NCBI GenBank assembly: GCA_050084515.1
Contig: CM114271.1
Span: forward strand, 40,982,001-41,046,000
DNA: 64,000 nt
Reading direction: 5' to 3'
Origin: Blasia pusilla
Lineage: Eukaryota
A program made the position numbers and the translations under genes. Positions 20,262 through 59,137 of this stretch are shown here, piece after piece. The notes under the pieces are model-generated. The model was not told the DNA's origin. It was given only the letters and a program-made list of their open reading frames with translations, and did no database searches. Positions within the stretch are counted from its first letter, which is position 1; the number at the start of each line of letters is the position of its first letter.

Positions 20262-20435
<174 letters not shown>

Positions 20436-28800: not shown

Positions 28801-29839
28801 TGCGACTATTTGGGGAGGTGGTTATCAATCTATTATCCGGAGGTTTCATCAGGGAGACTATGTCTACTTGCAACGGACAACATCCAAGACGTTGGATGTC
28901 AATGCAAGACGCACCATCTTGAGAGTGCGTGAGATTTTTCCATCTGATATTGTCTTATTAGAGGGACGCGATGGTATGGTTAGGAAGGACCATGTGTGTA
29001 ACTGTACGCCATGTCACCTTCATAACATTGACGATATAGTTGATCCGAGCTTAGAAATAGTTCTTGCAGGCTTACGATATATGTTGTGTGGTTTTGCCGT
29101 AATCAGCCACTATGCTAGTTTGTGATGGATATTCGAGAGGATGGCATATGGCATGTTTGACGCCATCTCTCACTAGGGTTCCTCAGGGACAATGGATGTG
29201 TTCCACATGTACATAGAGTAGGTAGTTCTAGATTATGACTTATGTCTATGACATGGATGACAAGAAGGCGACTAACGATGGGGCCACATAAGCAGTCGGC
29301 CTTTTTTGCTCTTAGCATCCGAGAGATGTAGTCATGGTAGGTAGGGATAGATGGCTATGTGGAGTTAGAGGGACCTACCCACCAGCTAGGGGGACGATTG
29401 GAGAAATTTTTGTACTTCTTGTCTCGTTGTTTGGATACCATGAGTTAGCATGGGATCGTGCGTGTTTGCGTGTATGTTTGTTGAAAGCGATGTATGTTTT
29501 GTAGCGATGTATATACGCACGATAACTATGACGACTTTGAGAATAGATTGGCGAGATCTAGAAGAACACCTTTAGAGATAATGAAGGATAGCCTTATGAG
29601 GTCGAGGATGATCTTCTGAGGCCACAAATAACCTGAGAGAGCATATTTCCCCTTTGCTTCGGCTCATTTGGAGCCATGTAGTGAACATACTATTTTGATT
29701 AAGTTTCTATTTGGAGTATAGTTGACTTTCCACTTTGGGAACTAGCCCTTGACCCGCTACAGCAGGTCAAGAGCCAAGGAGGCGACCTGCGAGCATAGGT
29801 TATCGAGGAGAGAGCTTGGGAGAGGGAAGGGGATATACC

Positions 29840-29957
<118 letters not shown>

Positions 29958-32439
29958 AGAGCTCATTCTCTCTTTGTTGAACCTCTTGGCATGAGGCGGC
30001 GGAGCTATGGTCCTCCTTGCCTTGTGCGTGTAACCCAAGCCTCTCATTAGGAGAGTGGGTTTGGTTTGACATGAGAGAGAGTGCACACCATAGAGAGTTT
30101 GGTGTGAGAAATGATGTGAGATCTACTTGATTTATTGGAGATACTTTGGTACTTCTTGTCTCATTGTTTGGATGCCATGAGTTAGCATGGGATCATGCGT
30201 GTTTGTTAGTATATTTTTTGACAGCGATGTATGTTGTGGAGCGATGTGCATGCGCACAAAAAATTTCCATGTCATTGAATGATGTGACATGGTGACTAGA
30301 ATTATCAACATTAAATCGAATACAACCATGTATCAACTTCACGTAGGAATGAATGACGAGGTCATAGATTCAATCACTATAGATGATGACAAGAATTATT
30401 ATTAGGCTGTCATATAATGCCATATGTAAGTATATCTTTGAATCAATTTGTGACACATAATTGAAATGACTTAGTCATATCAAGAAAAGTCAATAATTTT
30501 ATTAGCCATTAAATATTACAAAATTAGTCATTTTATATGACTTGTCTTTATAACTCTATTAGTCATGTACATGAGTATATCACTCATTGCCCAATGACTA
30601 TCAATAATATTTTATCACTATATTGGATATTTTGATGAGCGTTTGAGTCATTATCTTGATTATATTACTCATTGTTGTGATTATATGAGTCATTATCCAA
30701 TCTGAGTAGTTGTGTCAATCATATGTGAGTGCAAGAGTCATATGTATTATGTTACCATTAATTTAATGTCCTTGTATTAATACAATTAGAAATTCTCTCT
30801 ATCATTTCATTCAGTAACATAAATATAAATCTTATTAGCATATTCATTAGTGAGGATAGATATAATTTGATATCTATTGATTTCTTCACATTTAACTCTA
30901 GCCAAATGATCAAACTTTCAAATGCATCTCCAAGTGTAAGTACAGGAGGATCATTCATTGTGTAATTTGTGTTCAGTTCCTGTCGTTTGTAATTAGATTG
31001 CATTGTATCCTTAGGGTCCACTCTAACCAAACCAAGACCATAATCCTTTCCTCCAAACTTATATTTCCCACTTAAATATGAAACTACGCATGATCCAATA
31101 TTCCAAAATAGCCAATTCAAAATAGAAAGAAAATCGTAAAGGTAGCACCATAAGAAAATTGATAAACTAAAATACCCTCATTCATAACATTGGTGAAGGT
31201 CCATCCACCTATTGGTAAATTCTTTGGTAAATGGTTAAGCCTCACTTGGTTGGGTACCAAAAATAAGAAAAAGAAAATTCACAAAAAAACTCATCCATTA
31301 AAGCTAAATATCCATAAAAGGAACAACCCTTTTCCTTTTAAAAAGTGGGAAGCCTTTTTATTTACCTCGAGATTCTTTTTGTTGAGCACTTTTAGGTCAT
31401 ACTGTCAACCATCTTGGTGGTTGCCTCCACCTTCTTGTTGGTCTTTAGTGAAGTGTGTGTGTGCACTATTGCTTCGTCTATATAACAAAGAAATTGGAAG
31501 TTTGCAATACATAGATAAGCGAAGAAAATTCTCACATTCAACAATCATAAATAAACAAATTTATCTTATCTAAAAATCAATGCAACTGGAATAAATAATA
31601 CAAGGAATAAGAATACGAAGTGGCTGAGAGATGCACCTTGGAAAGTTGTAGTAGTCACTCATTTTGCTTAGTCAGTAATGGTAAGATTTGGATAATCAAT
31701 CTTCTCTTTACCTACGCGAAAGAAAGAGTCCAAATGCCAATAAATATTTTCATGTCTTACTCGACATAATATTTAAATCCTCACAAGAAAAAAATCAGTT
31801 TTCTATGTTCAAATAGAAAATGTAGTTATAAAAATGTATCGAGGATTTAGAGGAGTAACTTTGAATTGCACACTTGATTAGCTCTTACTTCTACTATGGA
31901 CATCCTTATTGTCTATGAAATTTCAAATTCCCTTTCTTAGGCGACTTGTTGGCCTCAATGCCAAGTTGTAAGTTTGTCACAACCTCCTATTCTTCTTGAT
32001 AGAACCATGTACAAGCCACATAAGTACTTAAAAAATAAGCATTTGATGATACCACAAAACCAGAATTTAGAGGTTATATAAGCAATATAACTTACTTTTC
32101 AAAGTTTTTGCATCATCCATGAATACACCATCAATTGATATACTAAAAGTAGTTCTTTCCCACTTAGATCCAATTTGGAGACCCAATTCATAAGTACTTA
32201 TAACTTCTTGGGGATATTTTGAGGAGTGGCCTTAAGACTGCTCCATTTATTTGACTCTCCCATAGGCTACTCTCAATTTGGGACCTAATATCTTGTATAC
32301 CTTCATCCAATTTTCTCTCAACATCATTTAGGTAGGAAGTGAGATCATATTCAACTCCCTATCAAGCCTACAAAAAAACTAACACATTTGAACATGAATG
32401 TTTCTTCCAAGTCTCGTTCTAGCATCTAACTCTCGTTCT

Positions 32440-32718: not shown

Positions 32719-35700
32719 TTCCCAACCCTATTTAAGGAAGGAAGATGGCTTTCCCAAGCCATCTTTCTCATGTTGGGCCATTGGAGCACCTCTCTTGTTA
32801 TGTGTGAGATAAGACCAAGGTGCTAGCGTCTCGATTTCTTGAGAGTACAAGATGGATGAGGCTCGATAGGCCAATGTAAATTGAGGAGAGGAGTTTTAGG
32901 CCCGGTGTGCCATTTTTACTACTCTTTATTTTTACATGAGAAAGATGTTAGGGGGCTTATGAGAATTCGTTGTTTGCAGATAGGCAAGCAAGTTCCCTTG
33001 ATGGGGAGCCCCACATACGCTGGTTGGCATTTTGTTGTCGTTTTCTTGTCCAGAAAGTTGTGCACGGAAGAGCTGCCCGTTTTTCTTCTCAGATCTTGCA
33101 GGGACGGGTGACGAGGGACATCGACAGAGTGGGGATCGGGCAAGAGCGCTTGGGTGCAACGCATAGTATTGTTAGAGGGTCGAGAGAACGACACATAGGA
33201 GGAGTGTCGAGAGAGAAGCATATTCACGGCTTGTAGTTGCCGGGGGGCCATCAAAAGGTGGATAGGGGCTAGGGCATAGCCGCCCAAGGCTAGGGTTAGG
33301 TCGGACAAGGGAGAGGGCAGGGCCGAAGTACGTCGGGAGCCGGACCCGAGAGCCACGAGCCGGGATTCGGGGCCGGACATTAGGGCGTCAAGCCGCGGCC
33401 CTTGGCCGCAATCCTCCTCTCCTCCCCCACCTTTCATTTACTTCCCCCCCCCCCCCCTTCCCCTACATTTAAGGACGTGCATAGGGCACCGTGACGGACG
33501 TGGTAAGGGCATAGTGGATGTGGTGGAGTAAGGGGCATGGGCAACCTGGTAGAGATGGGATAGACGTGGTTGAAAGGGAAGACGTGGTAGGCAAGCCGAA
33601 TGTCGTCCAGGTCATGGTTGACTTAGTCGGGCAATGCAGACGTGGTCAATCGGAAGGACGTTATCATGACCATACGGATTATGTCGTAGAGTATAGTGGG
33701 CTAGTAGAAGCCATACCTTATGTAGGGCCGTAGTGTCTAGATAGAGATGCGGTTTCATACATAGGATTGGGGGTTACTCAGTTGAGGGTGACTTTTCTAG
33801 TAGGGCCCGCTCTTAGGTTGGAGGGTATAGTGTGGAGTGCACTCAAAGAAAAGTAAGTTCTTTGAGTTGAGCCTGTTGCGTTGGGAGTTAGCCTTGGTAG
33901 TGAGTAGAGCTCTTGGCTATGGTGGTTTCCGCAAGCTTCGATCGGGATTCTCCCATCGTGAAGTGGGTTTGACTCCATTGTATGTGATTCTATACGTGTT
34001 TTATGATAGAAGGTCTTTCGCGGATTTCACTCAAAGAACTCGAGTAGATCGATGGTAGCTTCGATCGTAGATCAGTAGGATCTGCTTAAGGCTGATTGTG
34101 TACTCATCCGTGGATGTTCATGGTTTGTGGCCTATGTTGGAGGTATGAATCCGGTGTGTAGTTGGTTGGGAAAGAAGTGCCTTGCTCAGAGCTTTCCAAC
34201 GCGCATTAGATCGCCGGATTTTGTCAAGGGAGCTAGAAGTTATCAGGGATTGAAGATTCTCGTTCGTGTTCGATGGTATTCTAATGTGGAGAGCTTGGAG
34301 TGCGGAAGCTCTGTTGAAGTTCATCCAGATCGGTTGAGAGGTTCCTGTTGCTACCTGTATTTTGATCTCATGTGAAGCTATCTTCTTGAGTCTATGGAGC
34401 GTTGCGGATTTTTGTGTGCATGAATCTGGGCGGAAGCGCTGTCAGATTTCTGATTCTGGAGGTGTATGGAGAGCAAGTTTGTCTGATTTCTAGCTAGAAG
34501 TACAGAGCTTGGTTGTAGCTGATGTTTTGTGGAGAGATAGCTATGGTGGCTAATTGAATTCAGGTCGAAACAGATTTAATTTTGGTTGAGGATTTGTGGA
34601 GTAATTGTTGATCAAAATTTTTCGGACTAGCTCAAGGTCTGGCTATGGTAGACAACAGATCGGAGGGGTTGGTTGGTTGGTGACTCATCCATTGTTGGAG
34701 ACGCCTATCCCATTGGGGGCGCCCTGGTTGGGTATCTCTCCATAGTGAAGCATGGTGAAGCGTGGCGAAGCGTGGCGAACGGGGCAATAGGGGCATATCG
34801 GCGAGTGGGCGAGTGGGCGTGAGAGGCGGAGTAAGGAGCAAGGAGCAAGCAATCAAGCTTGCTTGCTTGGGCGTGAGGCAGTTTTTGCAAGATTTGTGAG
34901 TTGAGTGTTTAACTGCTGAGTTCTTAACTATGCCAGTATACACACTCGTGTAGCTCATTTGGTGTTGTTTGAAGATGTGTTGGGCGCTTTATGCATCTTG
35001 GGTTTTCGGTTGATGGACCTCTAGCGCATAGTACGGTGTAACCTCTCCATGCACATGATATTTTCAGGTGCTACGAGTGCGACTAGCACGTCATCGACCA
35101 GCGGCGGAGTAGCTATTGCATTAGAATTGTGTGGTGAGGTGTGTGGATTCAAGGGGCGCCAGGTTTGGTGGATTGTGTTACCTTGATTTCCATTTGCGAT
35201 TGGAGGGTTGTTGTTGGACTTCCGGTGTTTGGATCCCCTTCATTGTTGCTTCTTGCTTGCGCGCCCATTGTTAGGGTTGACGCTGATTTCCAGAGTAGTT
35301 TTACTCCTGTGTGCTACCGGTAGTGAGGCTGGAGTGATGACCAGAAGACCGTGGGAGGCTTCTTGTGGTGATGACAGGTTAGGTTGCCTACACCCATAGC
35401 TAGTAGAGCTAGAATAGTACAACGATATCGACGTCACTTGGTTACTTAGTGGTGGTGATTTTGTGGTGGTGCGGCATCAGCGTTGGTCATCACGGAGGTG
35501 TCTGGTGGTCTGGTTGGGGACTGTGGTGCGGACAATGGTGGTTTTACACAGAGTGGATTGAGGTATCGGCTACCTTTTCCACTTTCGACGGTTGATGAAG
35601 AGAAGGACGAGGGTGTTCCAAACACCGAGTCTTCTACGTTGTTATCGTATGTTGCAGCTCCATTGATTTGGGACATGGACGGGATATATGGGCCATAAAG

Positions 35701-37753
35701 GGCCCACGACAATACTCGAGCGCAGTGGGTTCCATTGAGTTGGAGGACTTCATTCAGGAGTTTGATACGTGGTGTGATATGCAGATGTTGCGGAACGCCA
35801 CATTGTTTACAGCCTTCTTGGCTTGGAAGGGGTTGTTTTAGCACTTGGAGGGACCATCCATGGACAATTACCATGAGTTTAGGAAGGACCATGTTGCTGA
35901 GATTGAGGTGTGGAGACAATATTGGTCTCGAGGCTATGTGTCTATCACCCATGGTCGTATTGGTAGTAGTGCTCCTACTATGCTAGCCAGCCCGACGTTG
36001 AGTGGTACGAGTACGAGCCGGATTGGGGGTACAAGTGGAGGTACCCATGGAGGTACCAGTGGAGGTACTAGTGCCCCACCATCATTCAGCCCGGTTGCAG
36101 AGTTCTTCAAAAGGTTGAAGAAGAACTATCAGGTAGTGAAGACAGAGAAGTTGAGGAGTCTTCACGAATTCGAGCGAAAGACTGGTGAGAGTCTTCGTGA
36201 GGCATACACTCGTATGCAAAGCTTGATTTCAGTTACCCAGGGTGTGATGGAGGCTCAAGCAGTCCAGTTTTGGTATGGGATCCTGGACAGAGAGTTGCGC
36301 CGTAGGGTACGTGATGCTACTCTTATGAGTGATGATTCACCCACATTGACCCATGTGTTTGCTCAATCTAAGAAGATTGAGCTTAACATGGTGGAGATGA
36401 GAGTGGTGACATCTGCATTCAGTAGGGATACAACTACTACTTCTCGTGTTCAGCAGTCCACCTCACAGTCTCATAGTAGTGGTGATGGTAGTAGTAGTGG
36501 GAGTCGTGGGGGTTACACACGACCTCAATTAGGTCCTAGAGGGACACTTGCGCAGAGACCATTGCCTTCATTTGCTGCCCCGCAACAAGGATAGTCATGT
36601 TGGACATGTCGAGGTGATCATGTTAGGAGGTTTTGTCCAAAGTCCGTCTCCTATCCTCTTGGAGACGGACTTTGGACGATGGGCCTCAGTTGGCCCCAAC
36701 TCAGTGTGATCATTGTAGGAGACCACGTCATCCTCGAGAGCGTTGCTTTGATCTTCATCCAGAGTTAAGATCAGGACGTGGCCGTGGTGGAGTAGCTCCA
36801 AGAGGCCGATGTGGTAGAGGTGGTAGAGGGCAACCCTCTATGTGAGGTGTAGCATTGAGTACTAGTGCTACTTGGCAGGCAGCAGCGGCGAAGATGGATG
36901 CATTACCAGCCCGACCAGCCATTGATTGTGAGAGGCTTACACCTAGTGTATGTATGTTGGACAATCGGAGTGGGATATTTCGATTGGTGAGTCCTACAGG
37001 ACAGGTGTATAGACCAGATAGAGTCTTGTTAGACTCTGGTGCCCAACCTTTGATGTTGGGAAAGGCGGCATGTATTGGTTTGGGTATTCAGAGGTCAGAG
37101 CTTGAGCCTTGCCCATTCCAGATTCAAACATCACTTGGAGGAGCCAATGATAGGTCTCAATTCATGACACAAGAGAAGTTGGCTGTACAGTTGAGACTAG
37201 ATCATGCGACTGATAGCTCCCGGTTGGGAGTACCTGCAGTGGTCACATTAGCCGAGTCGTATGATGTACTAGTTGGACGAGCAGTATTGTACCCTATGGT
37301 TTTTCAGATGGACTATTGGACTCAGACAACGTCTTATAGACCTGGTTGGCAGTCCGGGGATGGACGTATGAGCCAGGTTCTGTCGGATTTATTTATGGGG
37401 CTTGACCAGGAGGGTCTTCCCCAACGGTGTAAGCATATGTGGCTGGTTTTAGTGGAGAAGTCACTTGGCCAAGAGACTTTTTAGAGGGTAATCTTTCTGC
37501 TATGGATTCTCCTGTGCATGAGGAGGTAGAGGAGGTCCCTAGTTTTGCATCAGTGGCATCCTCATCGTTGGATGTGCCACTTTGGAGTTCACGCGGTGCA
37601 CTACGGTAGGAGGCTGATTGCCTAGTGTAGGAGGCTTGGTGTGAGGTTGTTATACCTCACGAGGAAGAGGAGGCCCCACGGCGGACTCCTACTTCTGGTC
37701 TTGTTGGGTTATCCCCTTTGGATACTACACCCATTGTATGGCAGTATCCGCCG

Positions 37754-38675
37754 AAGGGCATTTGTATGTTAGATCTCTTTGGTGGGATTAGCACTGATTT
37801 GGCTGCACTGTTGCAGGCCGGTATTCCTGTGCGGAGATACGTGTATGTGGAGCAAGATGAGACGGCCCATAGAGTCTCATCCCGACATATTGGTCAGTTG
37901 ATGCGGAGATATCCTGAGTTTTTCCGTCATCAGCTATTCGTGGGTACCAACGCGCTTTGTCGTCACACATTGCATTGTTGGGGGCGCAGGACTTTGAGAG
38001 GGATGGCTTGTGGATTTGGCGATTTCAGGATGCCCATGTCAGGGTCATACATGTGTTGGTCGTGGTGAGGGATTACAGGACCCTAGGTCTCGATTGTTTT
38101 GGGAGATGTTATGAGTGTTACGACATCTTCAGGTTCATGTGGCACGTGCTCTAGCTTACATTCTGTAGAATGTTCCATTGTTGGGTGACACTAGGACCCG
38201 GATGATGGCGAGTGTTCATGAGGTGCGGTCTTGGATTGGACCAGCGTGTTGTTGGATACAGCGCGAGTTGGCTTGCGTGCACATTGTCCATGCTTGTGGT
38301 GGAAAAACTTGTTGCCTAGGGAGGTTCTACGTCGAGCATATGATGCAGTGCAGCAGGATAGTATCTTGGATACTGGGCGACTTTCTCAGGTGGTGAGGGT
38401 TATTGATCAGTCACCCATGGTAGTGGTGAACCGTGTGGGCCAGCCTAGGATGGCACTACCCACAGTTATGAGTTTTCCCTCGTCACATGCCTACAGGGAA
38501 GGTGGTCCCGGGCTTGTATGGGATTCTCATGTGCGATAGTTGGTGGAGCCTAACGCTGATGAGAGAGAGCGTGCGATGGGATTTGCTACTGGTGTGACAG
38601 CGATCGCTTCCATTTATGAGGCTTCACGACGTCATGTGTTGGGTCAGGCCATGGACCTGAATTGTTGACCTGGCT
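37754..38675 (+). pseudogene. DNMT3-like C5 cytosine methyltransferase domain, copy B (catalytic PC intact; frameshifts and stops elsewhere)
   Basis: I GICMLDLFGGISTD; II YVYVEQD; IV VDLAISGCPCQG (PC at 38034-38039)...DPRSRLFWEM; VI AYIL*NVP; VIII AHCPCLWWKNLLP; IX/X EPNADERERAMGFATG...SRRHVLGQAMDLN. Confidence 0.92.
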
Positions 38676-40895
38676 TTTGAGTCTTGGTATGGCCGAGCAG
38701 CGTCGACTTCGGACTATGTCTATGGGTCTTCCACCCCTTGTGATGAGCTCGATGGCTACGAGGACTATAGAGACATCGGCTGAGGGCAAGGAGAATAGTA
38801 TTTTGCATCCTTGGAGTAAATGGGATGTAATGGCTGGGCATGTGGAGTTGGTTGCTCATGCTGGTGGAGGAGTTATTTGCTTAGATGATGGTGTAGCTAA
38901 GGGTGTACCATCTTCTGAGGGGGTTGCATAGTAGCCAATGGCGTCATCCTCTCCCTTTAGTGTGCCAGTGGAGGAGACTTGGGAGCCATTACTTGGGCCT
39001 AAGCTTAGGGGAGGTGAGAAACGACGCTTGACACAGTTCCTACGTGCTTATAGGAGTTGTTTTGCCTTTAGCATGAAGGAGTTGGGTGCTTTGGTTGGAC
39101 CCGGTATACGGATTGATTTGGCTAGTGATTCGCCAATCTTCCGTCGTCCCTACCGATATAGTGATATGGAGAGGGACCTGATTCAAAGTAGGACGTTGGA
39201 CCTTTTGGAGGCTGGATAAGTGGAGTTTTCGCATGGAGAGTATGCATCAGCCACTGTCATGCCTGCTAAAAAGGATGTGCATGGCAACTACACGGATAGG
39301 CGGGTGTGTGGAGATTACCGTCCTATCAATCGGCATACCAAGGCCGATAGGTATGCCATGCCTACACTTGAGGAGATCTTTGATCTGGGACAGGCAAAGG
39401 TTTTCAGAACTTTGGATCTTCAGACAAGATACCATCAGTTGCCCATTCGAGAGAGTGACAAGGCCAAGACAGCATTTTGGGATGTCAACTCTCATGGCAA
39501 GGATTGTTTGTACTAGTGGAAATTCTTACCCTTTGGGTTGAAAAATGCACCTGCCGAGTTTCAAAGAGTGATGGACAGGATCCTAGCAGGGTTGGATTTT
39601 GTTCGGTGTTACATTGATGATATCTTGGTGTTCAGTGATATGGTGGAGGAGCATCAGATACATTTGCAGATTATGTTTGAGCGGCTGAAAGCTCATGGTC
39701 TACGTTTGCACCCAGGAAAGTGTAAGTTCTTCCATGAGGATGTTGAGTACTTGAGTCATGTGATCTATCAAGGTGGTTTGGGAGTTCAGCAAGCAAAGGT
39801 GGAGGCTACTGCACTTATTCCTCGTCCGGTAGATGTGAGTAGAGTTTGAGCATTCATGGGATTGGCGAACTACTATCGGAGGTATATGAAGGGATTTAGT
39901 CCTATGGCAAAGCCTTTGAACCTATTGCTGAAATTAGATCAGGATTGGCACAAGGGAGATGATTAGGAGAGAGCTTTTGTGGAGCTCAAGGCCCAGTTGG
40001 TGGCGGCGCCTATCTTGAGGAGACCTATCAGAGGGCGCCCATTTCAGTTACACATTGATTGGAGTAGGTTGGGACTTGGAGCGGTGTTGACACAACATGA
40101 TGATGAGCACATGGTTTTTGTGGTGGCCTATGCAAGTTGTTTGAATAATGCAGCGGAGTTGCGCTATAGTTCATATGAGGGAGAGTGCTTGGCAGTAGTG
40201 TGGGTTGTGGCACACTTTAGGTGTTACTTGTTTGGCACAGTTTACCCTTATTCTCGATCACCAGCCGCTCAAGTGGTTGATGGAGTCTAACAAGCTTACA
40301 GGGAAGCTTGCACGGTGGGCTCTTATCTTACAGGAGTATGACTTCCAGGTGGTACATAGACCGTGAGTTGCCAACCTTGATGCTGATGGATTGAGTAGGA
40401 ACCCATGTACTAGCCAAGAGGATGCAACTGGGGCTAGATGGCATGGCGAGGTTGATGAGGAGATAGTGCCAAGTTGGCATGCATCTGCCTTTTTATGTTG
40501 GTTAGGGGTGGACTCTAGTATGGAGGACCACATGACATCTTACTCTAGTCATACGGTAGATGGCCAGCCTTCAGATCCTAAGGTTGGAGATGGTGGTATA
40601 GATCAGCATGATATTCATGATAATGCGTTGGTGTTGGAGTTTCTACAGACCAGTAGGGTGCCAGACATAGTGAGTGCCAAGGAGCGAGACCGTGTTCTTC
40701 AACGTGCTAAGAGGTATCAATTGGAGGGAACACATATTCCCCATGTATGGGAGGATGGTAGAGTACGAGTAGTGCCGCATTTGGCTCAAAGAAAGCGCAT
40801 TGTGCGACATACCCATGAGGAGTTGGGACATTTTGGGGTAAAGCGTACGTATAGCTTACTTCTTGGTCATTTAGTGCGTTTATTGGTGGCGTGGC

Positions 40896-42044
40896 ATGCA
40901 TACTCACGTGCAACAGTTGGTTTGTGACCGGGTGAGTGGCCCTACACCACAGTTACACCCCTTGCCTATTATGGGGTTGGGTTACCGTTGGAGTGTGGAC
41001 TTTGCGGTACCGTTACCGTTGACTGTACGACATCATCGATATGTGTTGGTGATAGTGGAGCACTTAACCAAGTGGATTGAGTTGGTGGCATTATCTGACA
41101 AGGTAAGTGAGGGAACGGCGTATGCGTTTCTTGATAGAGTGCTTAGTCATTTTGGTGCACCAGCTGAAGCGCTAACCGACCAGGGTACAAAGTTTCAGGG
41201 TGAGTTTCAGGTCTTGTGTGACAAGGCCTTGATTGATCATCGGACCACGTCTCGAGATCATGCAGAGGCGGAGGGTTTGGCTGAGCGTGTGGTTCAGACG
41301 GTGAAGAGGGCATTGCGCAAGTATGGCCTACAGAATGGGTATCTTGGAGACTGGGATATTCAGTTGCCATGGTTAGCCATGGTTAGCCATGGGTATAGGT
41401 TCAATCGCCAAGCATCCTTGGTTTCCTTCTCACCTTATTTTCTATTATACGGCCGAGATCTAGACTTGCCAACACCAATTCATCGGGAGTCTATTGAGTT
41501 GGTGAACCTTGATGACCTAGAGATGTGGATGATAGTGTGTTCTCACCGGGCAGAGCTCTTACGGAGAGTTATGCCAACAACCTTTGAGAATCTTGCCATT
41601 GCTCAACAAAGGGATACGTTGCGGTATGCAACCATTCAGGGTGGAGGTTATCGACCATCGATTTGTAGGTTCCATGTGGGGGACTATGCCTATTTGCAAC
41701 AGATTGCACCGACAACGTTGGATGTGACGGCAGGCCGCACTATTTTACGAGTGCGCGAGGTGTTAGCTTCTGGAGTTCTCATGTTGGAGGGTCATGATGG
41801 AGTTGTTTGGAAGGACCATGTGCGTAATTGTGCGGCATGTCATCTTCCAAATGTGGATGGTAGTATTGACCCAAGCTTAGCCATGATACGTGCTAGCTTG
41901 AGGTGCATGTTGTGTAGGTCTGCTGGTAACGCGGCCCGTATGTTGGTGTGTGATCGTTGTTCTAGGGGTTGGCACATGATGTGTTTGACTCCACGTATGG
42001 ATGTTGTTCCTACAGGAAGGTGGGTTTGTCCTCGATGTACTTAG
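40896..42044 (+). CDS. Gypsy DDE integrase core with C-terminal PHD finger (open segment of copy B pol)
   Basis: WSVDFA...LTDQG...GLAERVVQTVK (D,D,E). Ends in CMLC...MLVCDRCSRGWHMMCLTP..VPTGRWVCPRC, a C4HC3 pattern. Confidence 0.88.
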   Translation: MHTHVQQLVCDRVSGPTPQLHPLPIMGLGYRWSVDFAVPLPLTVRHHRYVLVIVEHLTKWIELVALSDKVSEGTAYAFLDRVLSHFGAPAEALTDQGTKFQGEFQVLCDKALIDHRTTSRDHAEAEGLAERVVQTVKRALRKYGLQNGYLGDWDIQLPWLAMVSHGYRFNRQASLVSFSPYFLLYGRDLDLPTPIHRESIELVNLDDLEMWMIVCSHRAELLRRVMPTTFENLAIAQQRDTLRYATIQGGGYRPSICRFHVGDYAYLQQIAPTTLDVTAGRTILRVREVLASGVLMLEGHDGVVWKDHVRNCAACHLPNVDGSIDPSLAMIRASLRCMLCRSAGNAARMLVCDRCSRGWHMMCLTPRMDVVPTGRWVCPRCT

Positions 42045-42734
42045 GAGAGGTAGATGACTTGATCTTTGCATGATATGGATTACAGATGTGCGACTAACAA
42101 TAGAGCAACCTAGCACCCGGCCTTTTGATTCGTGCACCCACGAAGGTGTGTAGCATGTAGTAGATGTATAGGGCTACCTGGGAGTTAGAGGGACCTAACC
42201 GCCAATTAGGGGGGCGAGTTGTGGTACACTTTTGTTTGTGGATGCTCTCGTCTATGTTATGTATGTATGTGAGTATGGTATGTCATCGATGTGTGTTGTA
42301 TGACGATGTGGATTCGCACGACAACGTAGTCGGGTAAGACCAACGTGGTAGAGGCAAGAGCGGACGTGGTGGGAGCAAGAAGTCGGACGCGGTTCGTTCA
42401 GATTACCAGTTTGAGGGGGCGGCTATGACTGTGTTGAGTTAAGTAGTAGGAGAGCATTTTGAGACTTGGTGTTTCGCGAGCATGGTGGGATTCACAACGG
42501 GAGTTTGGAAGTTATTACGAGTCGGTTGGGGGTTTACTCATAAGTCCTTCACCGACTGGGATTTGCGAGGGTTGTGATGGGGACACACATGTCGATGCCG
42601 ACGGGTAGTTTGCATTCATTGATGGGAGGTTTGACGTGTGTCGAGGAAAGTGTCGTGTTGTGGAGGTTTCCGTACCACTTGGACGAGTGAGGGTTGACGG
42701 TGCCGTAGGTTGGAGGGCGTGATCATGTCACACG

Positions 42735-48078: not shown

Positions 48079-50148
48079 AACAACGGGTCTGGTGACGAGA
48101 TTGCAGACGGAGAGTGTCACTTGGGAGGAGATAGACGACATGGGCCTCGAGGCATGCGTCGTTTCTCAGGTGTAACAGGCACCATCGACTTAGATGACTT
48201 CATCCAAGAGTTTGACACCTGGTGCGATTTCCAAGAGATACGGACCCCGACACGGTTCAACCCTTTTATGACATGGAAGGGGTTTTTCTAGCACTTGGAG
48301 GGTCCTCCGATGGATGATTACATGGATTTTTTATCACTGTATTCAGTAGAGATTGATGCTTGGAGGATGTATTGGGCTCCAAGGTATGTGTCCACTAGTG
48401 ATCGTGAGGCATATGATGGGATCGTGACAGGAGAGAGACCCACACCATTAGCCCGGAGACTAGATGGAGAGGAGGGCAGAAAGACAGACGATGTGGCAGA
48501 GACCTCAGTCCCATAGTGGAGTTCTTCTGATAGTTGGGGAAGAGCTACCAAGGCATACGCATCGACAAGTTGAAGAGTCTACAGGATTTTCAACAACGAT
48601 TGGGTGAAAGTCTCAAGGAGGCATTCACACGCATGAAGAGGCTGGTCATTGCTACTTATGGAGTGACTAAGGCGTAGTCAGTCTAGTATTGGTGCGGGGT
48701 TTTGGACCGAGAACTACGGAGGAGAGTCCAAGATGCGGTGTTGATTCACACAGCAAAGCCCACATTGAACGTGGTCTTCGAGTTGTCTGAGCGTATTGAG
48801 CTCAACATGAGTGAGGAGCAGGTAGTGACCACTGGCTTTTCTTGAGAGTCCACGAGCAACGGTAACCCCACAGGTGCCAGAGTGAGCACCAGTACCACGG
48901 GAGCAGGCTAGTGGGCCCAGAGAGCAGGGCAAGTACAGTGAGCCTATGAGGCAATGACTTGTACCTACATATGTTGCCCAGTAGGGACCAATGTTATCTT
49001 GTTCGACATGTGAAGGGGCCCATAGGCAAAGAGATTTCCCACAGCATGGGAGAGGACCACGAGCGCCTCCGATTGCTCAAGAGGCACAAAGGATAGATAG
49101 CCCTAATGTGACCATATTTGTGCCATAAATTTGGTCACACTACGGATAGATGTTTTGACCTTCGTCGAGAAGAATGTCTAGAGGTAGGCGGAGGGTTTAG
49201 GGGCGGTCGTCTTGGAGGAGGTCGAGGAGTTGTTGTTGGATGTGGTGGTAGAGGACCACCACCTTCTAGAGGAGATGAAGTGGGAGCACTAGTGACGGCG
49301 CTTGTCTCGCGCAACGATCAGTTGGAGTAGAGGATTTCTGCCATGACGATGATGCAGGTCAGGGAAGGCATAGAGTCGAGAGTAGCTAGTGTGACTCCAG
49401 CTTCCACCTCTTACCTTGACCCGATGAGGATCTCCCTAGTATGGGGTTTACGTGTAGTGCGGCTTAGGTTGAGGCTGCTGCGGTGGTGACTCGAGGTGCT
49501 GCAAGAGGCACTAAGCCATCGAGAGGTGGAGTTGAGATTGACTCATCGGAGGGGACCGATGGACGGCAGACCACGGTTCCATAGTCGTTCACGTTGTCAA
49601 AGGCACTACACACACCATTCATGGTGCATCAACGACCAGTGGTGCCTTCAAGTCAGGCAGGTGCATCGACATAGCGAGGAGTTGGAGTGGCGGCTCCTAT
49701 GCCGACTCGAGTGGAGTCTGTGTCGACCATAGTGTTGGAAGTGGCCACGAGGGTGAGTCAGGCTCCGTTATTCTCCGCCATAGAGTTGGCGACATTGGGA
49801 GTTGGACCAGTTGAGGTGTTCTAGCTAACCGCCACGTTGTGTGAACGTGGAGAGGTGAGTTCACACAACTCTCATTCAAAGGTAGTTGAGGAGGTGGTGG
49901 ACTTGCTTGGAATAGGTGCTCGGGACGTCCCCCACAAAGTCATGGCATGCGGCAGCGACAAAGTTGGTAGATATACCAGCTCGATCCAATCACCTGACCT
50001 GCTACAGAGGAGTGCCGATGACCTCGTGAGGTAGGCGTGGAGTCATGCCTTTATCTCGAAGCAACGAGAGTCAGGTGGCGATCGAGCTCGTGGGGTGGAG
50101 ACGTTGACACCATTGGATACCATAACTGTTGTGTGGTAGTATCCAGAG

Positions 50149-51070
50149 GAGGGTGTTAGGGGGTTACATCTCTTCAGAGGGATTAGCACCGGATTAGTTG
50201 CGGTGTTGCAAGTGAGCATATGGGTGAGATGAGACCGCACGGTGAGTATCATTACGTCATGTGGCGAGATTGGTCCAGAGGTATCCTGAGTTGTTGCCGG
50301 TATCTGCAATACGGGGGTATGAGCATACACTACCCGCCGACATCCCTTTGGTGGGGGCACAGGATCAAGATAGGGTTGGCACCATTCATTTGGTGATTTC
50401 TGGAAGGCCATATTAGGGTCATTCATCAGCTGGCGGAGTGTTTGGATTGCAGGATCCGAGGTCAGGGATGTTTTGGGAGATGCTACAAGTAGTGCAACAC
50501 TTACACAAGCATCAGACATGTTCTGTTGCGTACATTTTGGAGAACGTGCCGTTGTTGGGAGACACTCGTGCACGTGTGATAACGAGTATGCATCAGGTGA
50601 GGTCCTGGTTAGGACCTGTTGTGTTGTTAGATGCAGCAAGAGTTTGATCACGCGCCCATTATCCACGGCTATGGTGGACGAACTTGATACCATCAGAGGT
50701 ACTAAGTCGAGCATACGATGGAGTTTAGAGAGTACCACATCTCATAGTGGATGCTATTTTGGGCTCATGGCGTCGATCTCAAGTGGTAACGCATGATGAT
50801 AGACCACCGTTGGTGATAGCCAATAGGATGGAGGAGTTGAGGGGAGCCTTATCTACGTTCGTGAGCTTCCCAACATCCCATGCCTTTTTTCAAGGAGGGC
50901 CCAGCATGATTTGGGATGAGGTGACCCGAGCATTGGAGGAGCCTATGGAAAATGAGCGCAAGCACGCCATGGGGTTTGCTAAGGGTACTACGGTTGTGCC
51001 AAGTATGACTGCGGCATCACGGAGAGAGGTGTTGGGGCATGCGATGGATCTCAACTATCTCATATGGATA
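50149..51070 (+). pseudogene. DNMT3-like domain, copy C (disrupted)
   Basis: I GVRGLHLFRGISTG; IV LVISGRPY*G...DPRSGMFWEM; VI AYILENVP; VIII AHYPRLWWTNL; IX/X EPMENERKHAMGF...RREVLGHAMDLN. Confidence 0.88.
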
Positions 51071-54000
51071 GTCAGCCTAGGTATGGCTGAGCAGAGATGG
51101 ATGCGCGTGTCCTCCATGCCGTCACGTCCACGAGTTGGAGCATTTCCTACAGGGTCTGTATAGGCATTGGCTGGGGGCGAGATAAGGAGAGATATGCCCC
51201 CATGGACTTCCTGGGATGTCGTTCAAGTGGATAGTGCGAAGGCGGCCAGAGCAACACATGTTCATTTTTTGGATGCGGAGCATGGTGTAGGAGGTCAGAG
51301 TGGAGTGGTTGTTGCGGAGGTGGCTAGGGTTGTTACATAGCAACCAAAGCCGGAGGTTGCGTCCTCTCCGAATGAGGTCACGATGAAAACTTGGGAGCCT
51401 GTGATAAGTCTCAAGTTGATAGGAGGAGAGCGATGGCGAGTACATAGGTTTTTTAGAGGGCATGTCAATTGTTTTGCCTTCAATATTCATATGAGAGACT
51501 TGGGTGCGTTGAAGGGTCTCGGGATACAGATTGATTTGGCTAGTGATACTCCGATCTTTCGTCGATCCTACAAGTATTTTGATATGGAGCGAGCCTTGAT
51601 TCGAAGCAGGAGTCACAACTTGTTGGAGGCAGGACTTATGAGGAGTATGCATTTGCCACAGTCATGCCCGCGAAGAAGGATATGTATGACAATTGGACAT
51701 ATAGGCGGATGTGTCAAGATTATCGACCTATCAATCGACACATGAAGTCGGATCGATATGCCATGCCTACTCCTGAGGAGATCTTTGATGCGGTAGGGCA
51801 TGCAAAGATCTTCAGTACTTTAGATCTCTGTGTTGGCTATCATCAACTTCCTATCAGGTTGGAGGACAGGGAGTAGACAACATTTTGGGGTATAGATCGG
51901 TTCGGGAGAGATTGCTTGTATCAGTGGAGGTTCTTATCATTTGGGTATAAGAACGCGCCTGCGGAGTTTCAGAGAGTGATGGATAGGATTCAGGATAGCT
52001 TGGATTTTGTACGGTGTTACATAGATGATATTCTTATCTTCACTTCCACGGTTGAGGAGCATGAGCGACACCTAAAGGAGGTGTTTCGGAGATTGCAGTT
52101 ACATGGACTAAAGTTACATCTAGGCAAGTGCAGATTCTTTCAGGAGCAAATTGAGTACTTGGGACACACCATATACCCAAGTGGGTTAGGTGTTCGGCAG
52201 ACGAAGGTGGAGGCTATTGCACAGATTCCACGCCCTACAGATGTGAGTTGATTCCGAGCGTTTATGGGATTGGCGAACTTCTATCAACGGTATGTCAAGG
52301 ATTTTAGTGCGATCGCGAAGTCTTTGACCTTGCTGACAAGACTTGATCAGATTTGGTTGTGGGGAGATGATCAAGAGCTAGCATTTCAAGAGCTCAAGGA
52401 TACATTGACGTCCTCACCCATTTTACACAGTCCAATTAGGGGTCGCCCATTCCAGTTACATATGGATTGGAGAGTTCGTTGTGGCTTACGTGAGGCAAAG
52501 TATAGCTCCTATGAGGGAGAGTGCTTGGCTGCAATGTGGCATGTGGCACATTTCTCGTGCTATCCATTTGGCAACCCTTTCACACTTATCACTGATCATC
52601 ACCCGTTGAGGTGGTTGATGGAGTCCAACAAGCTTATGCGAAAGGTTGCCATATGTGGTCTATTACTACATGAGTATAAGTTTGAGGTGGTTCATAGGCT
52701 AGGTCGGTTGAACGAGGATGCGGATGGATTGAGTCATAACCCATGTCCGAGTCAAAGACATGACATAGGAGCTTGATGGCACGGAGAGAGTGATGAGGAG
52801 ATGGTGTCCGGTTGGCATGCATCTGCCTATCTTTGTTGGTTGAAAATGGCAGGTCATCCGCCAGTGGTGGGGTCGGATGATGAGTCTTTGGATCCAGAGG
52901 TCACTGAGGAGATGACAGATGGTCGTGATATCCATGACGACGTGGAGGTTATGGAGTTCTTGTGTATTGGCTTCATAGCGAGCACAATGAGTGCTAAGGA
53001 GCAGGATCGGATCCTATAAAGAGTCAAGAGATTCAGGTGGGAGGGGACTCTCATTTTGCGGGTATGGGGAGATGGTAGGATACGAGTGGCACCTCATCCT
53101 TCCCAGCAAGCAGGTGTAGTACGACATGCCTATGAGGATTTGGGGCATTTTGGAGTAAAGCGTACTAACAGCTTACTCCATGTTCAGTATTGGTGGCGCG
53201 GCATGCATACTGGGGTACAACACTTTGTGGTTTAGCGGTGGAGTTTAGACTTCGCCAGACCTTTTCCATTGATGGGGTGTCATCATTGGTACGTGTTGGT
53301 CATGGTGGAGCATTTCTCCAAGTGGATAGAGTTGGTGGCACTATCGGACAAGGCGAGCAAGGGAATAGCTTATGCATTTCTAGATTGTGTGCTTAGTCAC
53401 TTTGGTGCGCCGACGGAGGTGTTGACTGACCAGGGTACCGAGTTGAGGGGAGAGTTTCAATTCAGGCTTTGTGTGATCAGGAGTTGATAGATCACCGCAC
53501 CACGTCCAGATATCATCTTGAGGCGGATGGGTTGGCAGAGAGAGTAGTACAAACGATGAAGAGAGGATTGCACAAGTATGGCTTGCAGCGGGGACAGCTG
53601 AGGGAGTGGGACCTATATTAGCCATGGTTGGCTATGGGTTATTGCTTTAGTCGACAGGCATCCTTGGCGTCATTTTCATCGTGCTTTTTGCTCTTTGGGA
53701 GAGAGCCACATTTGCTTGCAGCTATTTGATGAGACATGGCAAAGGTGTTAGATCTTGATGATCTAGATGTGTGGGTACAAGCGTGTTCTCAGAGGGCAGA
53801 AATTTTTTGTAGAGTTATGCCCATGGCCTCTAAGAACTTAGCTATTGCTCAGCATAGGGATACATTGAGGTACGTGACCATTCGTGGAGGAGGTTATTGT
53901 CCAGGGATTAGGAGGTTTCATCCTAGAGATTATGTGTATTTACAGCAGGCAACACCCACGACGCTAGATATCACTATAGGGCCCACAATCCTACTTGTGC

Positions 54001-54273
54001 GTGAGGTATTACCAACTGTAGTCCTCATGTTGGAGGGACGAGATGGTGTGGTTTGGAAGGATCATGTGCGCAAGTGTGCGCCATGTCACCTTCTAAACAT
54101 GGACGAGATAGTGGATCCGAGCTTGGCAATGATACCTGCATGCTTGAGATATATGTTGTACGGATCTAGGTGGGTGCAGCCACCATGTTGGTACATGATG
54201 GTTGTTCTCAAGAGTGGCATATGTCATGTTTGACCCCCCCCCCCCCCTCCCCCCTCTTGATATAGTTCCCACG

Positions 54274-54545
54274 CATGATTGCACCAAAACGGACATGGAC
54301 ATGGATTCCAAAAAGGTGGGACCCATACTTTTAGGCCATGATGGAAGGCAGAGCAAGGATGAGAGGAGCAATCAGGAAGGAGGAAGTGGGGATGGAGGGA
54401 GGAGGGAGGAAGAAATGGAGGAGTATGGAACACTGAGGCAAGTAAGGGAAATGAGAAAGAAGGGAAAGGTGGGGCCCATACGGACAAGTCCTTCCATAGA
54501 ATAAACATAAATCCACGAATATGGACATGTCCACATGCAACCTTG
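54274..54545. mobile_element. hAT-type MITE (272 bp) inserted in the PHD finger of copy C
   Basis: Perfect 8-bp TSD TTCCCACG (54266-54273 and 54546-54553); imperfect TIR CATGATTGCA / TGCAACCTTG. Removing it rejoins ...LDIVPT to E*WICLRC. Confidence 0.8.
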
Positions 54546-55425
54546 TTCCCACGGAATGATGGATATGTCTGAGATGTGTATAGGGTAGTAGGTCATGTCC
54601 GGGAGATGAGATATTTTCTATCTGGAGTTAGGGGGATCCAACTACCAGCCAAGGGGGCGATTGTGTGATCTCCATATATATATATATATATGAGTTGATT
54701 TTTGTACATGTGTGGATCTACCCTTGTGTGGGGAAGATCGGTATTGTGTGGTATGGATGTGACCAGCGATGTATATTGTGTAGCGATGTGTATGCACACA
54801 AAGCTGTCACATCTGAATAGCTGATAGGCCGAGATTTATCGTGTATAGGCCATAGGAGCCAACGGACTGTCTTGAGTGTAACTTTATTCCGATGTGTTAA
54901 ATGAGGTTGAGAATAGGTTTTTTGTGTCAGGAACGTTATTTTTGACAACTTTCTTGTTGAGATCTTTCACAATCGGGTGACTTTTGTTCACCAAGTCATC
55001 CGCCCTTGGTAACCTGTACGCGTAGGTTACCAGGAGGATAGCTATTTTTAGGGGAAGAACCAAAATGGCTCTTCCCAACCCTACATAAAGGAGGAAGATG
55101 GCTTTCTCAAGCCATCTTTCTCATGTTGGGCTGTTGGAGCACCTCTGTTGTTGTGTGTGGGATCAGATGAGGGTGCTAGCGTCTAGATTTCTTGAGAGCA
55201 CACGATGGACAAGGCTGGGTATGCCGATGTAGATTGAGGAGTGTAGTTTTAGGCCGGGTATGTCATTTTTACTACTCTTTATTTTTGTTGTATGATCTCC
55301 ATGTATATGTATGAGTTGATTTCTGTACATGTGTGTATCTACCTGTGTGTGGAGAAGATCGGTGTTGTGTGGTGTGAATGTGACCAACGATGTATGTTGT
55401 GTAGCGATGTATATACGCACGAAAA

Positions 55426-57079
55426 CATCTCTATTTGACTTTGTCTGCCAATTGATAGGTTGATTGTCTCCACACATCGGCCTATCCGTCCAGTTTTCAT
55501 GCACATCCTTCTTGCATTGGCAAGCATGATAGTGGTAGATACATACTCTCCATGCAATACCTCCACTAGTCCTACTCCAACCAAGTCCTGACAACTACTC
55601 TAAATCAGAGCCCTCTCCATATCATTTTACTTGTAGTGTTATTAGAAGATCGGCATGTTGCTAAACAAGTCAATTGTGATCCCTAGATCCTTCAACGTAC
55701 CCAAGTCATGCATGTTGAATGCAAAACAACTCCAATGACTCTTAAGGAATTGATATATCCGGCGCCAATTTCCTTTTCTCAACTTAGGACCCATATCTAC
55801 CTCCCAAGTCTCCATCTTGACTACTATAGGACTCTCTAGCATGGGTGTTTGTAGTTGCTATGGTACAATCCCATCTCGAACCACAAAATTCAACTACTCT
55901 TCTATAACCGACTCAAAACTCTTATCTCCTCAATCTGCAAGCCCATGTACCACGCTCGGTGTTGTGGTTATCATCTTCCGATGTACGTGAAAAACATCCC
56001 AATGAGTCCAAGGGTGTCTCTCCCAATCATTCATGATGTATCAATCTCCTCAAGTATTGCCCCTAACCACTGCCTCAACGGTCTCGGTAGACCTATTGCA
56101 ACCTCATCTAACGCTACTCAGCTACTCCTAAGTTGATAATCCATGTCAAGAAATTCATGTCCATTGTGTGATCCATGACATAATGTCGAGATACCTCTGA
56201 TAATGATGATATTTTTGTCACTCCTATGGGAAATCCCATCGCTTGCTCTCGCTCATCGGCATTGGGCTCTACCAACCATTCTACTTGATCATCCTAAACC
56301 AAGCCATGATTGGCCTCCTCATAGGCATAGGAGACGGAAAACTAAAAAATGCAAGAAAGGTTGCCCATAGCATGCAATCCTATTGACCATTTTGAACACG
56401 GGAGCAATCATCATGCCACACTCTTTGTGATCGCCACACTAGATCCAAAATAGAATCCACCAACAAATGGGAGGGACGATCTATCCTCGCATACGCCCTC
56501 CTCAAGACCTCATGCAATACCAAGTTGGTCCACCATAGATGCAGGCAATGTGCTCGTGACCCTATACATGCCGTATCCAATAATACTTCACGATCCCTCT
56601 ATGCACGTACCTCATGTGCAAGCATCATCCTCGTGACGTCTGATTTTGGTACATTCTCCAAAATGTAAGCTAGAGAGTGGGATTGGTGTTTAGTCAAGTG
56701 TCTTAATATCCTCGTCATCTTCCAAAATAACCTTGATTGTGTATCACCTAAACCACTACCACGTCCAACACTCGATTGGCCCTAACATAGCCAACCTACA
56801 ATGACCAATTAATGGTCCCTGCCTCATCCAAGTCCTGCGACCCTAACAAAGAAATATCCCTCTACGGACAAGGAAGGAACTCTAGTACCTCTCTACGACC
56901 AACGCAGAGAAAAATTCAGAAAAACAAAGGCGTAACTATGCCACATGTCAAAGTGGGAGGCGATTTGCAACTTCATCACAATCCACGTATAAGTATATGT
57001 GCTCGTGCAGTCCTGCCTGCAAAATAGCATCCAACCCAGTGTTGATCGCTCCAAAGAGATCCGACACTCGAATACCCTC
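55426..57079 (-). pseudogene. Copy D: fragment of the same family (DNMT domain ~56140-57079 plus RT N-terminus)
   Basis: Reverse complement: GIRVSDLFGAINTG; LVIVGWLC*G...SRLFWKM; AYILENVP; AHCLHLWWTNL; EPNADEREQAMGFP; then ETWEVDMGPKL...CFAFNMHDLG and RT ...CGDNQPINWQTKS, cut at 55426 by the terminus of copy C. Confidence 0.85.
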
Positions 57080-58495: not shown

Positions 58496-58620
58496 CACAT
58501 TAAGATTAACCCATGGATGGCATACTTTTTCTATTTAACATTCTCATCCCCTTCAAGCATCAACCCAAGAATTTATATCTTGTCTATTCCTTTCTATTGT
58601 TAATAATACCCACATTCTAG

Positions 58621-59114
58621 TTTTCGTACGCATACACTTTGCGATACAATATACATCGTTGTCAATCAATACACACACAAACACACAAAATACCATACCA
58701 ACTCATGGCATCTAAACATCAAGAAGACCAAATATTAAAATACCTCCAATAACTTCGACACCTCAAGATTCAACAATGAGAGAATAGGTTCCAAAGTTCT
58801 CTCTCCTTGGATATACCCCCTTCCCTCTCCCAAACTCTCTCCATGGTAACTTATGCTCGTAAGTCACCTCCTTAGTTCTTGATGTGTTGTAGGGGGTTAA
58901 GGGCCACTTCCCAAAAAGTCAACTCTACGTCTAACTATAACTTACCCAAACTAGTGAGTTTCTTTATATAGCTCCAAATAAGCTAAAACAAAGGGGAAAC
59001 CTATACTCTCAGTTTACTCAAAGCCTCAACAAGTCACCCTTAACCTCCTAAAGTTGTTCTCCAATAACCTCAAAGATGCTCTACCAAAACGTGTTAATCT
59101 ATCATAAAAGACGT
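58621..59114 (-). repeat. Isolated terminal repeat of the copy A subfamily in permuted order mid-B-A'
   Basis: Reverse complement aligns to ~29531-29990 (mid and partial B, only a short GA run), then ttattggagg...gatgccatgagtt...cgatgtatattgt...gcgtacgAAAA (A'). Confidence 0.72.
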
Positions 59115-59137
59115 GAGAAGGTACTCTTTCTAAAGGG

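Follow-up and report, generated by a model that had tools for sequence, protein, structure and literature searches.

The window, a 64-kb stretch of DNA, contains four decayed copies of a Ty3/gypsy-type family (E1 to E4), recognized by self-BLAST and Pfam searches, together with a solo unit of the family's repeat segments A and B. Across these copies the encoded domains comprise a gag-like region, a weak C5-methylase match, RVT_1, RNase H, Integrase_H2C2, rve and a C-terminal PHD finger. The elements have the layout A1-internal-polypurine tract-B1-2 nt-A2-B2 (Table 1). Internal sequence, and never B, lies directly 3′ of A1, and the motif studied here is therefore the 3′ end of B. The split-repeat layout accounts for the six motif copies of the window, which are B1 and B2 of E1, B1 and B2 of E3, B1 of E2 and the B of the solo unit.

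Table 1. Coordinates of the family's features in the window, with the evidence for each.
Feature	Position	Strand	Evidence and details
E1 A1	20066..20605	+	self-BLAST, 20078-20606 vs 29658-30134
E1 predicted self-priming primer-binding site, ACAAAGAGAGAAT	20606..20618	+	13-nt exact reverse complement of 20437-20449; adjoins A1
E1 internal: decayed gag-like, weak DNMT, RT, RNase H, integrase	20619..29387	+	Pfam; E2/E3 homology
E1 polypurine-tract-like, AGGGGGACG	29388..29396	+	sequence; directly 5′ of B1
E1 B1	29397..29524	+	motif 29488-29524; spacer AC 29525-29526; 29397-29520 vs 30134-30257, 86%
E1 A2	29527..30133	+	self-BLAST; starts TATGAC, a decayed TGTCAC-type start
E1 B2, element 3′ end	30134..30263	+	motif 30225-30261, then AA
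E2 A1, 3′ 215 bp only	32719..32933	+	87% identical to 55072-55286
E2 predicted self-priming primer-binding site, ACATGAGAAAGATG	32934..32947	+	14-nt exact reverse complement of 32760-32773
E2 coding: gag-like, RT, RNase H, integrase (H2C2, rve), PHD finger	35671..42207	+	Pfam; homologues
E2 polypurine tract (42208-42218) and B1	42208..42323	+	motif 42287-42323, then AC
E3 internal, 5′ end missing	48120..54650	+	self-BLAST, Pfam
E3 polypurine tract (54651-54660) and B1 (54661-54802)	54651..54802	+	motif 54767-54802; spacer GC 54803-54804
E3 A2	54805..55287	+	starts TGTCACATC; predicted RNA-start stretch 55113-55126
E3 B2, reported site	55288..55426	+	motif 55388-55424, then AC 55425-55426
E4 fragment, DNMT-RT part of a related element	55438..57079	-	74% identical to 24947-26606 reversed; abuts E3 end
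Solo A-B unit	58620..59128	-	A 59128-58753, B 58752-58622, motif 58658-58622, then AC

In E1, the 5′ ~130 bp of A1 are absent or diverged relative to A2; the remainder contains a (GA)n array and, at 20437-20449, the stretch ATTCTCTCTTTGT that is complementary to the primer site. The only trace of a Dnmt3-type domain in the window is a weak PF00145 match in this element (25238-25471, E 0.0023, below the cut-off), which also carries RT_RNaseH at 27140-27592. Unrelated AT-rich DNA begins at 30264. The partial A1 of E2 retains a TATA-like CTATTTAAGG and a predicted RNA start, CATCTTTCTCATGT, at 32760. E2 lacks A2-B2 after its B1 and is followed by copia-type genes, around which (42.3-48 kb) no copia LTR pair was found. 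E3 bears a copy-specific 304-bp insertion (54241-54544) that family reads skip, passing from 54240 to 54545. A G-run precedes B1 in E2 and E3 as it does in E1, and in 24 related loci. Foreign RT sequence had been reported to start at 55426; minus-strand RT homology does adjoin the element, but from 55438, and 55427-55437 could not be assigned. Nesting of E3 in a minus-strand fragment, with the A1 of E2 as the 5′ end of E3, was considered and rejected; no second half of E4 was found.

The motif had been described as occurring six times, and this count holds. Exact matches to CGATGT-N11-CGATGT in the 64-kb window begin at 29488, 30225, 42287, 54767 and 55388, and a sixth, degenerate copy on the minus strand (58658-58636) differs from the pattern at 2 positions. 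When up to 2 mismatches were allowed the window contained 11 matches against 3.64 expected, and none of 100 shuffles reached 11, the largest number being 8. The remaining 5 matches lie outside the repeats and are taken as chance occurrences. In an alignment of the six copies the shared block is ~40 bp long and the invariant columns are concentrated in the motif, with subterminal repeats CGATGT, CGATGT and CGACA at 17 and 15 bp.

Neither the T/G-rich sequence upstream of the motif nor the sequence downstream of it could be aligned between subfamilies, and the motif is far better kept than these flanks, as the sequence-only reading had proposed. Its three-way identity between subfamilies is 0.74-0.82, versus a mean of 0.50 over 7.5 kb of aligned E1, E2 and E3; the motif value comes from a separate alignment, because the 3′ end of E3 was misplaced in the long one. 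The 15 highest-scoring coding windows (40 columns each, non-overlapping) reach 0.78-0.90. One cross-subfamily pair of motifs (29486-29526 and 55386-55426) is identical at 38 of 41 positions, above the 33 of 41 found in each within-element pair. CpGs are likewise preferentially kept: over ordered pairs of copies, 82 of 105 motif CpGs (78%) are shared, versus 198 of 591 (34%) in RT-integrase coding sequence. The heavy decay of the surrounding reading frames is borne out by family reads, from which the window copy differs mostly by G>A (263 places) and C>T (228 places).

Relatives were sought with the integrase-PHD ORF of E2, for which a search of longer proteins gave 149 homologues at E<=1e-10; PF00145 occurs in the same protein in 10 of the 120 homologues listed. 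Named sources include Tetrabaena socialis and Klebsormidium nitens, and a "putative retrotransposon protein" of K. nitens shares 41% identity with the window ORF over the integrase-PHD region. An exact IUPAC pattern of the motif gave 0 matches in metagenome contigs; it missed the relatives because their second CGATGT reads CGATATGT. A scan of the contigs with the integrase protein recovered 80 loci, all on short-read metagenome contigs; one group is close, at 60-82% identity, and the other distant, at 42-49%. Proteins encoded by these relatives include DNMT, RT, RNase H, integrase and PHD domains. PF00145 exceeds the Pfam cut-off in loci L031, L068 and L072 and in P0011; 29 of 32 PDB matches of the L072 ORF are DNMT3A/B/C, and the best solved match of a relative's Pol is the Ty3 Gag-Pol chain 7q5b. 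The Pol order RT-RNase H-integrase (H2C2 and rve) was found by Pfam in E1 to E3, in the relatives and in P0011.

The split-repeat layout recurs in these loci. Among 54 with at least 600 bp of downstream sequence, 24 have a direct repeat pair of 115-185 bp just after the integrase gene, and all 24 read G-run/B1...CACGACA-2 nt-TGTCATG (A2)...A2/B2...CACGACA/unrelated flank. In 18 of 19 sequences, B1 and A2 are separated by 2 nt, the single exception being a pattern artefact. Full-length A1 copies without a following B are present in L031, L054, L068 and L072, in which the layout A-coding-B-A-B is complete; in the window it is seen as A1...B1-A2-B2 in E1 and as B1-A2-B2 in E3. Where the primer site follows A, the sequence upstream of A is flanking DNA in 10 of 10 distinct copies, and B in none. 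On the metagenome contigs, 41 of 57 distinct B ends run into sequence other than A, but elements with a single B were not accepted as established, since short-read assemblers may collapse B1 and B2. The close group carries the motif in the form CGATGTATGTTGTATGACGATATGTATTCGCACGACA, with four CpGs in 39 bp in the window's clade. A different but equally well kept block, TTACGACACCGTACGTCACGACACTACACGTCACGACA, occupies the position in the distant group, where ACGACA occurs three times at 15-bp spacing and seven CpGs lie in 38 bp. Common to all groups are only the terminal CRYGACA and the A start TGTCAYG.

These two sequences form the ends of the inserted DNA, TG...CA with a 7-bp imperfect inverted repeat (TGTCAYG / CRYGACA). 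Target-site duplications were scored in the relatives rather than in the window, since the A1 copies of E1 and E2 are 5′-truncated. Of 8 complete relatives, 4 have perfect 4-bp duplications (CATA, ACTA, ATGT and CCAA), 2 match at 3 of 4 positions and 2 show none. The motif extends as far as this CA, at the right-hand terminus of the insertion, and its internal duplicate adjoins the start of A. The proposal that it is a cis-acting 3′-terminal signal is upheld for the DNA end joined to the host, with its CA end, inverted repeat and 4-bp duplications, and fails for an RNA 3′ end.

The A4-A6 run noted after three terminal copies bears on the same point. The three copies (E1 B2, E3 B2 and the solo A-B unit) are indeed terminal, and each has AA at the expected CA (CGAAAAC twice, CAAAAAA once) followed by A(C/A). 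Internal motif copies in the window end GATAAC, GACAAC and AAAGC, the B ends of relatives read ...CGCACGACA, and joints in family reads are ...CGACA-GC-TGTCAC (77 reads) and ...CGAAA-AC-TGTCAC (19 reads). From these three sets of ends, the terminal A-run is a decayed form or subfamily variant of ...CGACA plus spacer and not a poly(A) tail.

Raw reads under the same species label, comprising one DNA run and three RNA runs, were compared with 52000-59400 at a likeness of at least 85%. The family is very abundant: roughly 1% of the DNA run already gives a summed depth of ~1000-1500. Of the DNA reads, 1337 break off at 55422 and 777 at 54799. The DNA consensus after the cut is the start of A (..TGTCACATCTTTTAGGATAGATCGG), which is also the A start of E3, with an agreement of only 0.43-0.5; this low agreement indicates that many B ends run into heterogeneous flanks. 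Such heterogeneity after many genomic B ends is as expected if B is a true terminus too. Termini cluster at the motif in the larger sample of family reads and related loci, as had been anticipated. At the B end, 51, 97 and 76 RNA reads from the three runs agree with the A start at 0.84, 0.73 and 0.76, respectively, which indicates that transcripts cross B1 into A2. RNA reads with the B of another subfamily upstream still match the motif (loose ends before 55385). If the libraries are of the usual stranded kind, plus- and minus-strand copies alike give sense RNA.

We next consider how such an element would be copied. In 6 of 12 A1 copies, the 12-15 nt adjoining A1 are an exact reverse complement of a stretch within A, located 118-173 nt before its end (13 nt in E1, 14 nt in E2, and 12, 15, 15 and 13 nt in L004, L054, L072 and L075). 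Two decayed copies among the other six keep 9-10 nt in place, three have 8-11 nt elsewhere, and one partial copy has none. A TATA-like box lies ~30 nt upstream of the stretch in 5 of the 6, while in E1 the (GA)n array precedes it. Primer-site sequences vary between clades and their complementarity is kept, and we interpret the segment after A1 as a Tf1-type self-priming site directed at a predicted RNA start. No TGG-start site of the tRNA-primed type was seen by eye after A1 or B1.

A primer site after A1 and a polypurine tract before B1 mean that reverse transcription should yield an LTR of the form B-nn-A, in which U3 should consist of B and the 5′ part of A, and R-U5 of the 3′ part of A. 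It follows that the inserted ends, the TG of the A start and the CA of the B end, sit inside this LTR and meet there as CA-nn-TG. Two identical LTRs bounding an element were not encountered; the 5′ repeat is A only, and B flanks A2 on both sides. The A2/B2 joint varies, by small deletions or by 0-3 nt that match the beginning of the primer site (A, AT or AAT), and looks like a new end joining each time. Several other accounts of the repeats were rejected. Reading B-A as a canonical TG...CA LTR, suggested by TTTACA at the A1 ends of E1 and E2, conflicts with the distant clade, in which B starts ATACATG and A ends ...TTCAAT. The A2/B2 joint is not a splice joint, as no GT...AG lies at its boundaries, and LINE-type retroposition (5′ truncation, A-tail, long duplication) does not accord with the full-length A1 copies and 4-bp duplications of the relatives.

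Taken together, these data suggest that the motif, the last ~37-40 bp of B in Gypsy-DNMT3 elements, is most likely the right-end (att) sequence of a DDE integrase, an assignment made from sequence and held with moderate confidence. The integrase would bind the motif at the right end of the inserted DNA, and additional integrase protomers may sit on the subterminal CGAYR / ACGACA repeats, of which there are two or three, spaced by 15-17 bp. The internal B1-A2 joint would carry both end sequences through RNA to the next generation, in the manner of the DIRS-1 internal complementary region. B2 would reach the 3′ end by way of joined (circular or concatemeric) cDNA, which, opened at CA-nn-TG, would give A-int-B-A-B and also A-int-B; the mirror form A-B-A-int-B is predicted as well. 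The full scheme is tentative, and we rate it as possible rather than probable: self-priming would make an ordinary B-nn-A LTR, integrase would cut the internal CA-nn-TG on joined cDNA to give the permuted A...B-A-B, the motif would be the right att arm, the likeness to DIRS would be convergent, and the 0-3 nt at A2/B2 would be an end-joining scar.

Several observations count against the integrase reading. The three terminal copies of the window have AA in place of the expected CA and retain an A(C/A) after it. Standard reverse transcription puts no B end at a DNA end, so that an extra, unobserved step is needed; 2 of the 8 complete relatives lack a target-site duplication; and the mirror product of a symmetric circle was seen in none of the 8, a number too small to exclude it. 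In addition, retroviral-type integrases usually need only about 10-20 terminal bp, and the conservation of 40 bp suggests a further role.

That further role could lie in replication. The motif may be mainly a replication signal, with the B1-nn-A2 joint serving as a template or primer site that rebuilds or defines the ends, like the DIRS-1 internal complementary region; in a variant, RNA of the B end could prime the plus strand at a second place and thereby fix where A begins with TG. The conservation of both the B end and the A start, their abutment with exactly 2 nt between them, the RNA reads that cross the joint and a conserved length beyond the usual integrase end all speak for such a signal, and the DIRS-1 region is experimentally essential in the account given in PMC7192593. 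Yet the motif is not purine-rich, and none of the reverse-transcription schemes that we wrote out from the mapped primer site and polypurine tract makes B2. As the main function of the motif we consider replication rather unlikely; the replication and integrase roles may both hold.

The density of CpGs in both clades and their retention in the motif speak for the proposal that it is a CpG-dependent regulatory or epigenetic element, either a target of the element's own DNMT3 or a site for a methylation-sensitive protein. The family does encode a DNMT3-type domain. Dead copies of both clades, however, lose motif CpGs as CG>CA or CG>TG, so the CpGs are unprotected and selection on active copies suffices to explain their retention, which fits purifying selection on the motif equally well. 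Moreover A1, the promoter copy for the genomic RNA, has no B upstream, which also makes a promoter-element role unlikely. A CpG-dependent function is accordingly improbable in our estimation.

An RNA 3′-end signal for polyadenylation or termination, with the A-run as a poly(A) remnant, had also been suggested, and would find some support in the U/G-rich character of B, which has several UGUA motifs upstream of its end, and in the A-runs of the three terminal copies. Internal copies nevertheless share the A-rich ending, relatives end in CGACA and pass at once into target-site duplications, and most RNA reads that extend beyond the B end go on into A. The positions of the primer site and TATA-like box place R-U5 in the 3′ part of A, where the poly(A) site should then be, and no poly(A) loose end was present among the rows listed. 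The suggestion is not sustained, and we judge such a signal very improbable. A tyrosine-recombinase crossover site, as in true DIRS, Ngaro and PAT elements, whose A-internal-B-A-B layout (PMC5890265; PMC7192593) is the one found here, can be dismissed almost entirely, given the DDE integrase, the TG...CA ends with 4-bp duplications and the absence of tyrosine recombinase PF00589 from 124 window ORFs, 37 proteins of relatives and the precomputed domains of the 120 listed homologues; the earlier idea of a recombination signal survives only as recognition of the end by a DDE integrase.

Integrase recognition of the B end can be set against several known systems. The layout of the family is already in print, barely described: KnitGypsy-Dnmt3 of Klebsormidium nitens is characterized by "DIRS-like repeats, Gypsy domains" (de Mendoza et al. 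2018, PMC5890265), and a streptophyte "Gypsy-DNMT3" is mentioned in a 2026 preprint, these being the only two full texts in which either name was found. As far as the accessible portions of PMC5890265 go, KnitGypsy-Dnmt3 resembles the present family in its A-coding-B-A-B repeats and in a Ty3/gypsy Pol whose polyprotein includes a Dnmt3-type methyltransferase; those portions describe neither a terminal motif nor target-site duplications, a primer site or the anatomy of the junctions. The window's host differs in having a very abundant family with plant-type copia neighbours, and the two elements are likened by description. As far as literature searches show, neither the anatomy of the ends nor the discrepancy between the insertion ends and the LTR expected from reverse transcription has been published.

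Elements of the DIRS order (PAT-like, Ngaro) have terminal repeats arranged as A1...B1-A2-B2, and split direct repeats of this kind are found here. A further likeness is the internal joint of adjacent end copies, which is required for retrotransposition in DIRS-1, as reported in PMC7192593. DIRS-order elements, however, code for a tyrosine recombinase and probably insert from circular DNA, leaving no DDE-type duplications, whereas the window family combines a DDE integrase with TG...CA ends, 4-bp duplications and a polypurine tract. Self-priming is known from Tf1/sushi elements, and PMC6317226 gives it as a prediction for two plant lineages, Tcn1 and TAR. The present family is similar in that its primer site lies beside a repeat and is complementary to the element's own predicted RNA 5′ end, not to a tRNA; Tf1-type elements differ in having ordinary identical LTRs whose ends are the integrated ends, which here lie inside the LTR. 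The 3′ CA, 5′ TG, short inverted repeats and CA-nn-TG joint recall retroviral and Ty3 att ends and the palindromic LTR-LTR circle junction, and retroviral integrases can cleave circle junctions in vitro. Here, by contrast, CA-nn-TG is permanently internal, and ~40 bp with subterminal direct repeats are conserved.

A gypsy element with DIRS-like split repeats has thus appeared in print as a one-line structural remark only. The B-nn-A LTR, the TG and CA ends inside it, the fixed 2-nt B1-A2 spacer and the variable A2/B2 joint yield testable predictions on how an element with a DDE integrase keeps a split-repeat layout. At least one large genome contains the family widely and in great abundance, together with a terminal motif that is better kept than most coding sequence. 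Standard LTR finders will mis-call such split-repeat elements, which matters for annotation. If the permuted-cDNA reading is true, the family would represent convergence of a DDE-integrase lineage on a permuted life cycle like that of DIRS elements.

In place of the terminal CA found in related elements, repeat B ended in AA in all three terminal copies in the window, namely the downstream B repeats (B2) of the plus-strand Gypsy-DNMT3 copies E1 (30257-30263) and E3 (55420-55426) and the B of the minus-strand solo A-B unit (58626-58620), with A(C/A) following directly in each. The CGAAA-AC variant was also present at internal joints between the first B and the second A (B1-A2), where 19 raw reads mapped to window 52000-59400 carried it vs. 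77 with CGACA.

The 304-bp insertion in E3 was copy-specific, and more than 250 family DNA reads skipped it, carrying 10 other letters there instead. In two metagenome loci (L024, 1541-1817; L026, 3321-3487) the integrase gene was followed directly by the 3′ half of an A repeat and then B, without a polypurine tract, B1 or the 5′ half of A2. Across window 20000-55000, the Gypsy-DNMT3 copies had a strongly positive GC skew (0.18-0.30) on their sense strand, and the skew was reversed on the minus-strand copy.

Several other features share the window (see table). The 1031-bp direct repeats lie 6.3 kb apart, no Pfam domains were detected in the ORFs between them, and the pair with its interior looks like a non-autonomous LTR element. 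A second, more divergent pair, flanked by the minus-strand RT fragment on one side and the solo A-B unit on the other, is possibly a small terminal-repeat element. The copia-type genes begin ~385 bp past the end of the B1 of E2, a further plus-strand copy, and no LTR pair for them was found around 42.3-48 kb. The ORF matching Pho88 is possibly a host gene exon.

Features in the window
Feature	Position	Strand	Details
1031-bp direct repeats	3880-4899, 10178-11197		96.5% identity
Short ORF	13015-13326		Pho88-family match, E 6.9e-6, 25.9 bits
(GA)n array, E1 repeat A	20266-20434, 29840-29954
Primer site, E1	20606-20618	+	reverse complement of stretch in A
Primer site, E2	32934-32947	+	reverse complement of stretch in A
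Copia-type genes	42709-45701		Retrotran_gag_2, Pol_BBD, SH3_retrovirus, RVT_2
E3 insertion	54241-54544
Direct repeat pair	57077-57337, 58188-58436		71%
NOMO-like host gene, exons	61023-63861	-	DUF7152, NOMO 8th and 9th domains, CarboxypepD_reg

The 12-15 nt 3′ of the first A repeat (A1) were perfectly reverse-complementary to a stretch within A in E1, E2 and four metagenome loci (L004, L054, L072 and L075). A TATA-like box lay ~30 nt upstream of the complementary stretch in 5/6 copies; in E1, the remaining copy, (GA)n preceded the stretch. This long array, immediately upstream of the predicted RNA start, was not present in the related minus-strand A at 58.8 kb. Although the sequences of the primer site and A stretch differ between clades, their complementarity is preserved, and the site following A1 is predicted from sequence to be of the self-priming type.
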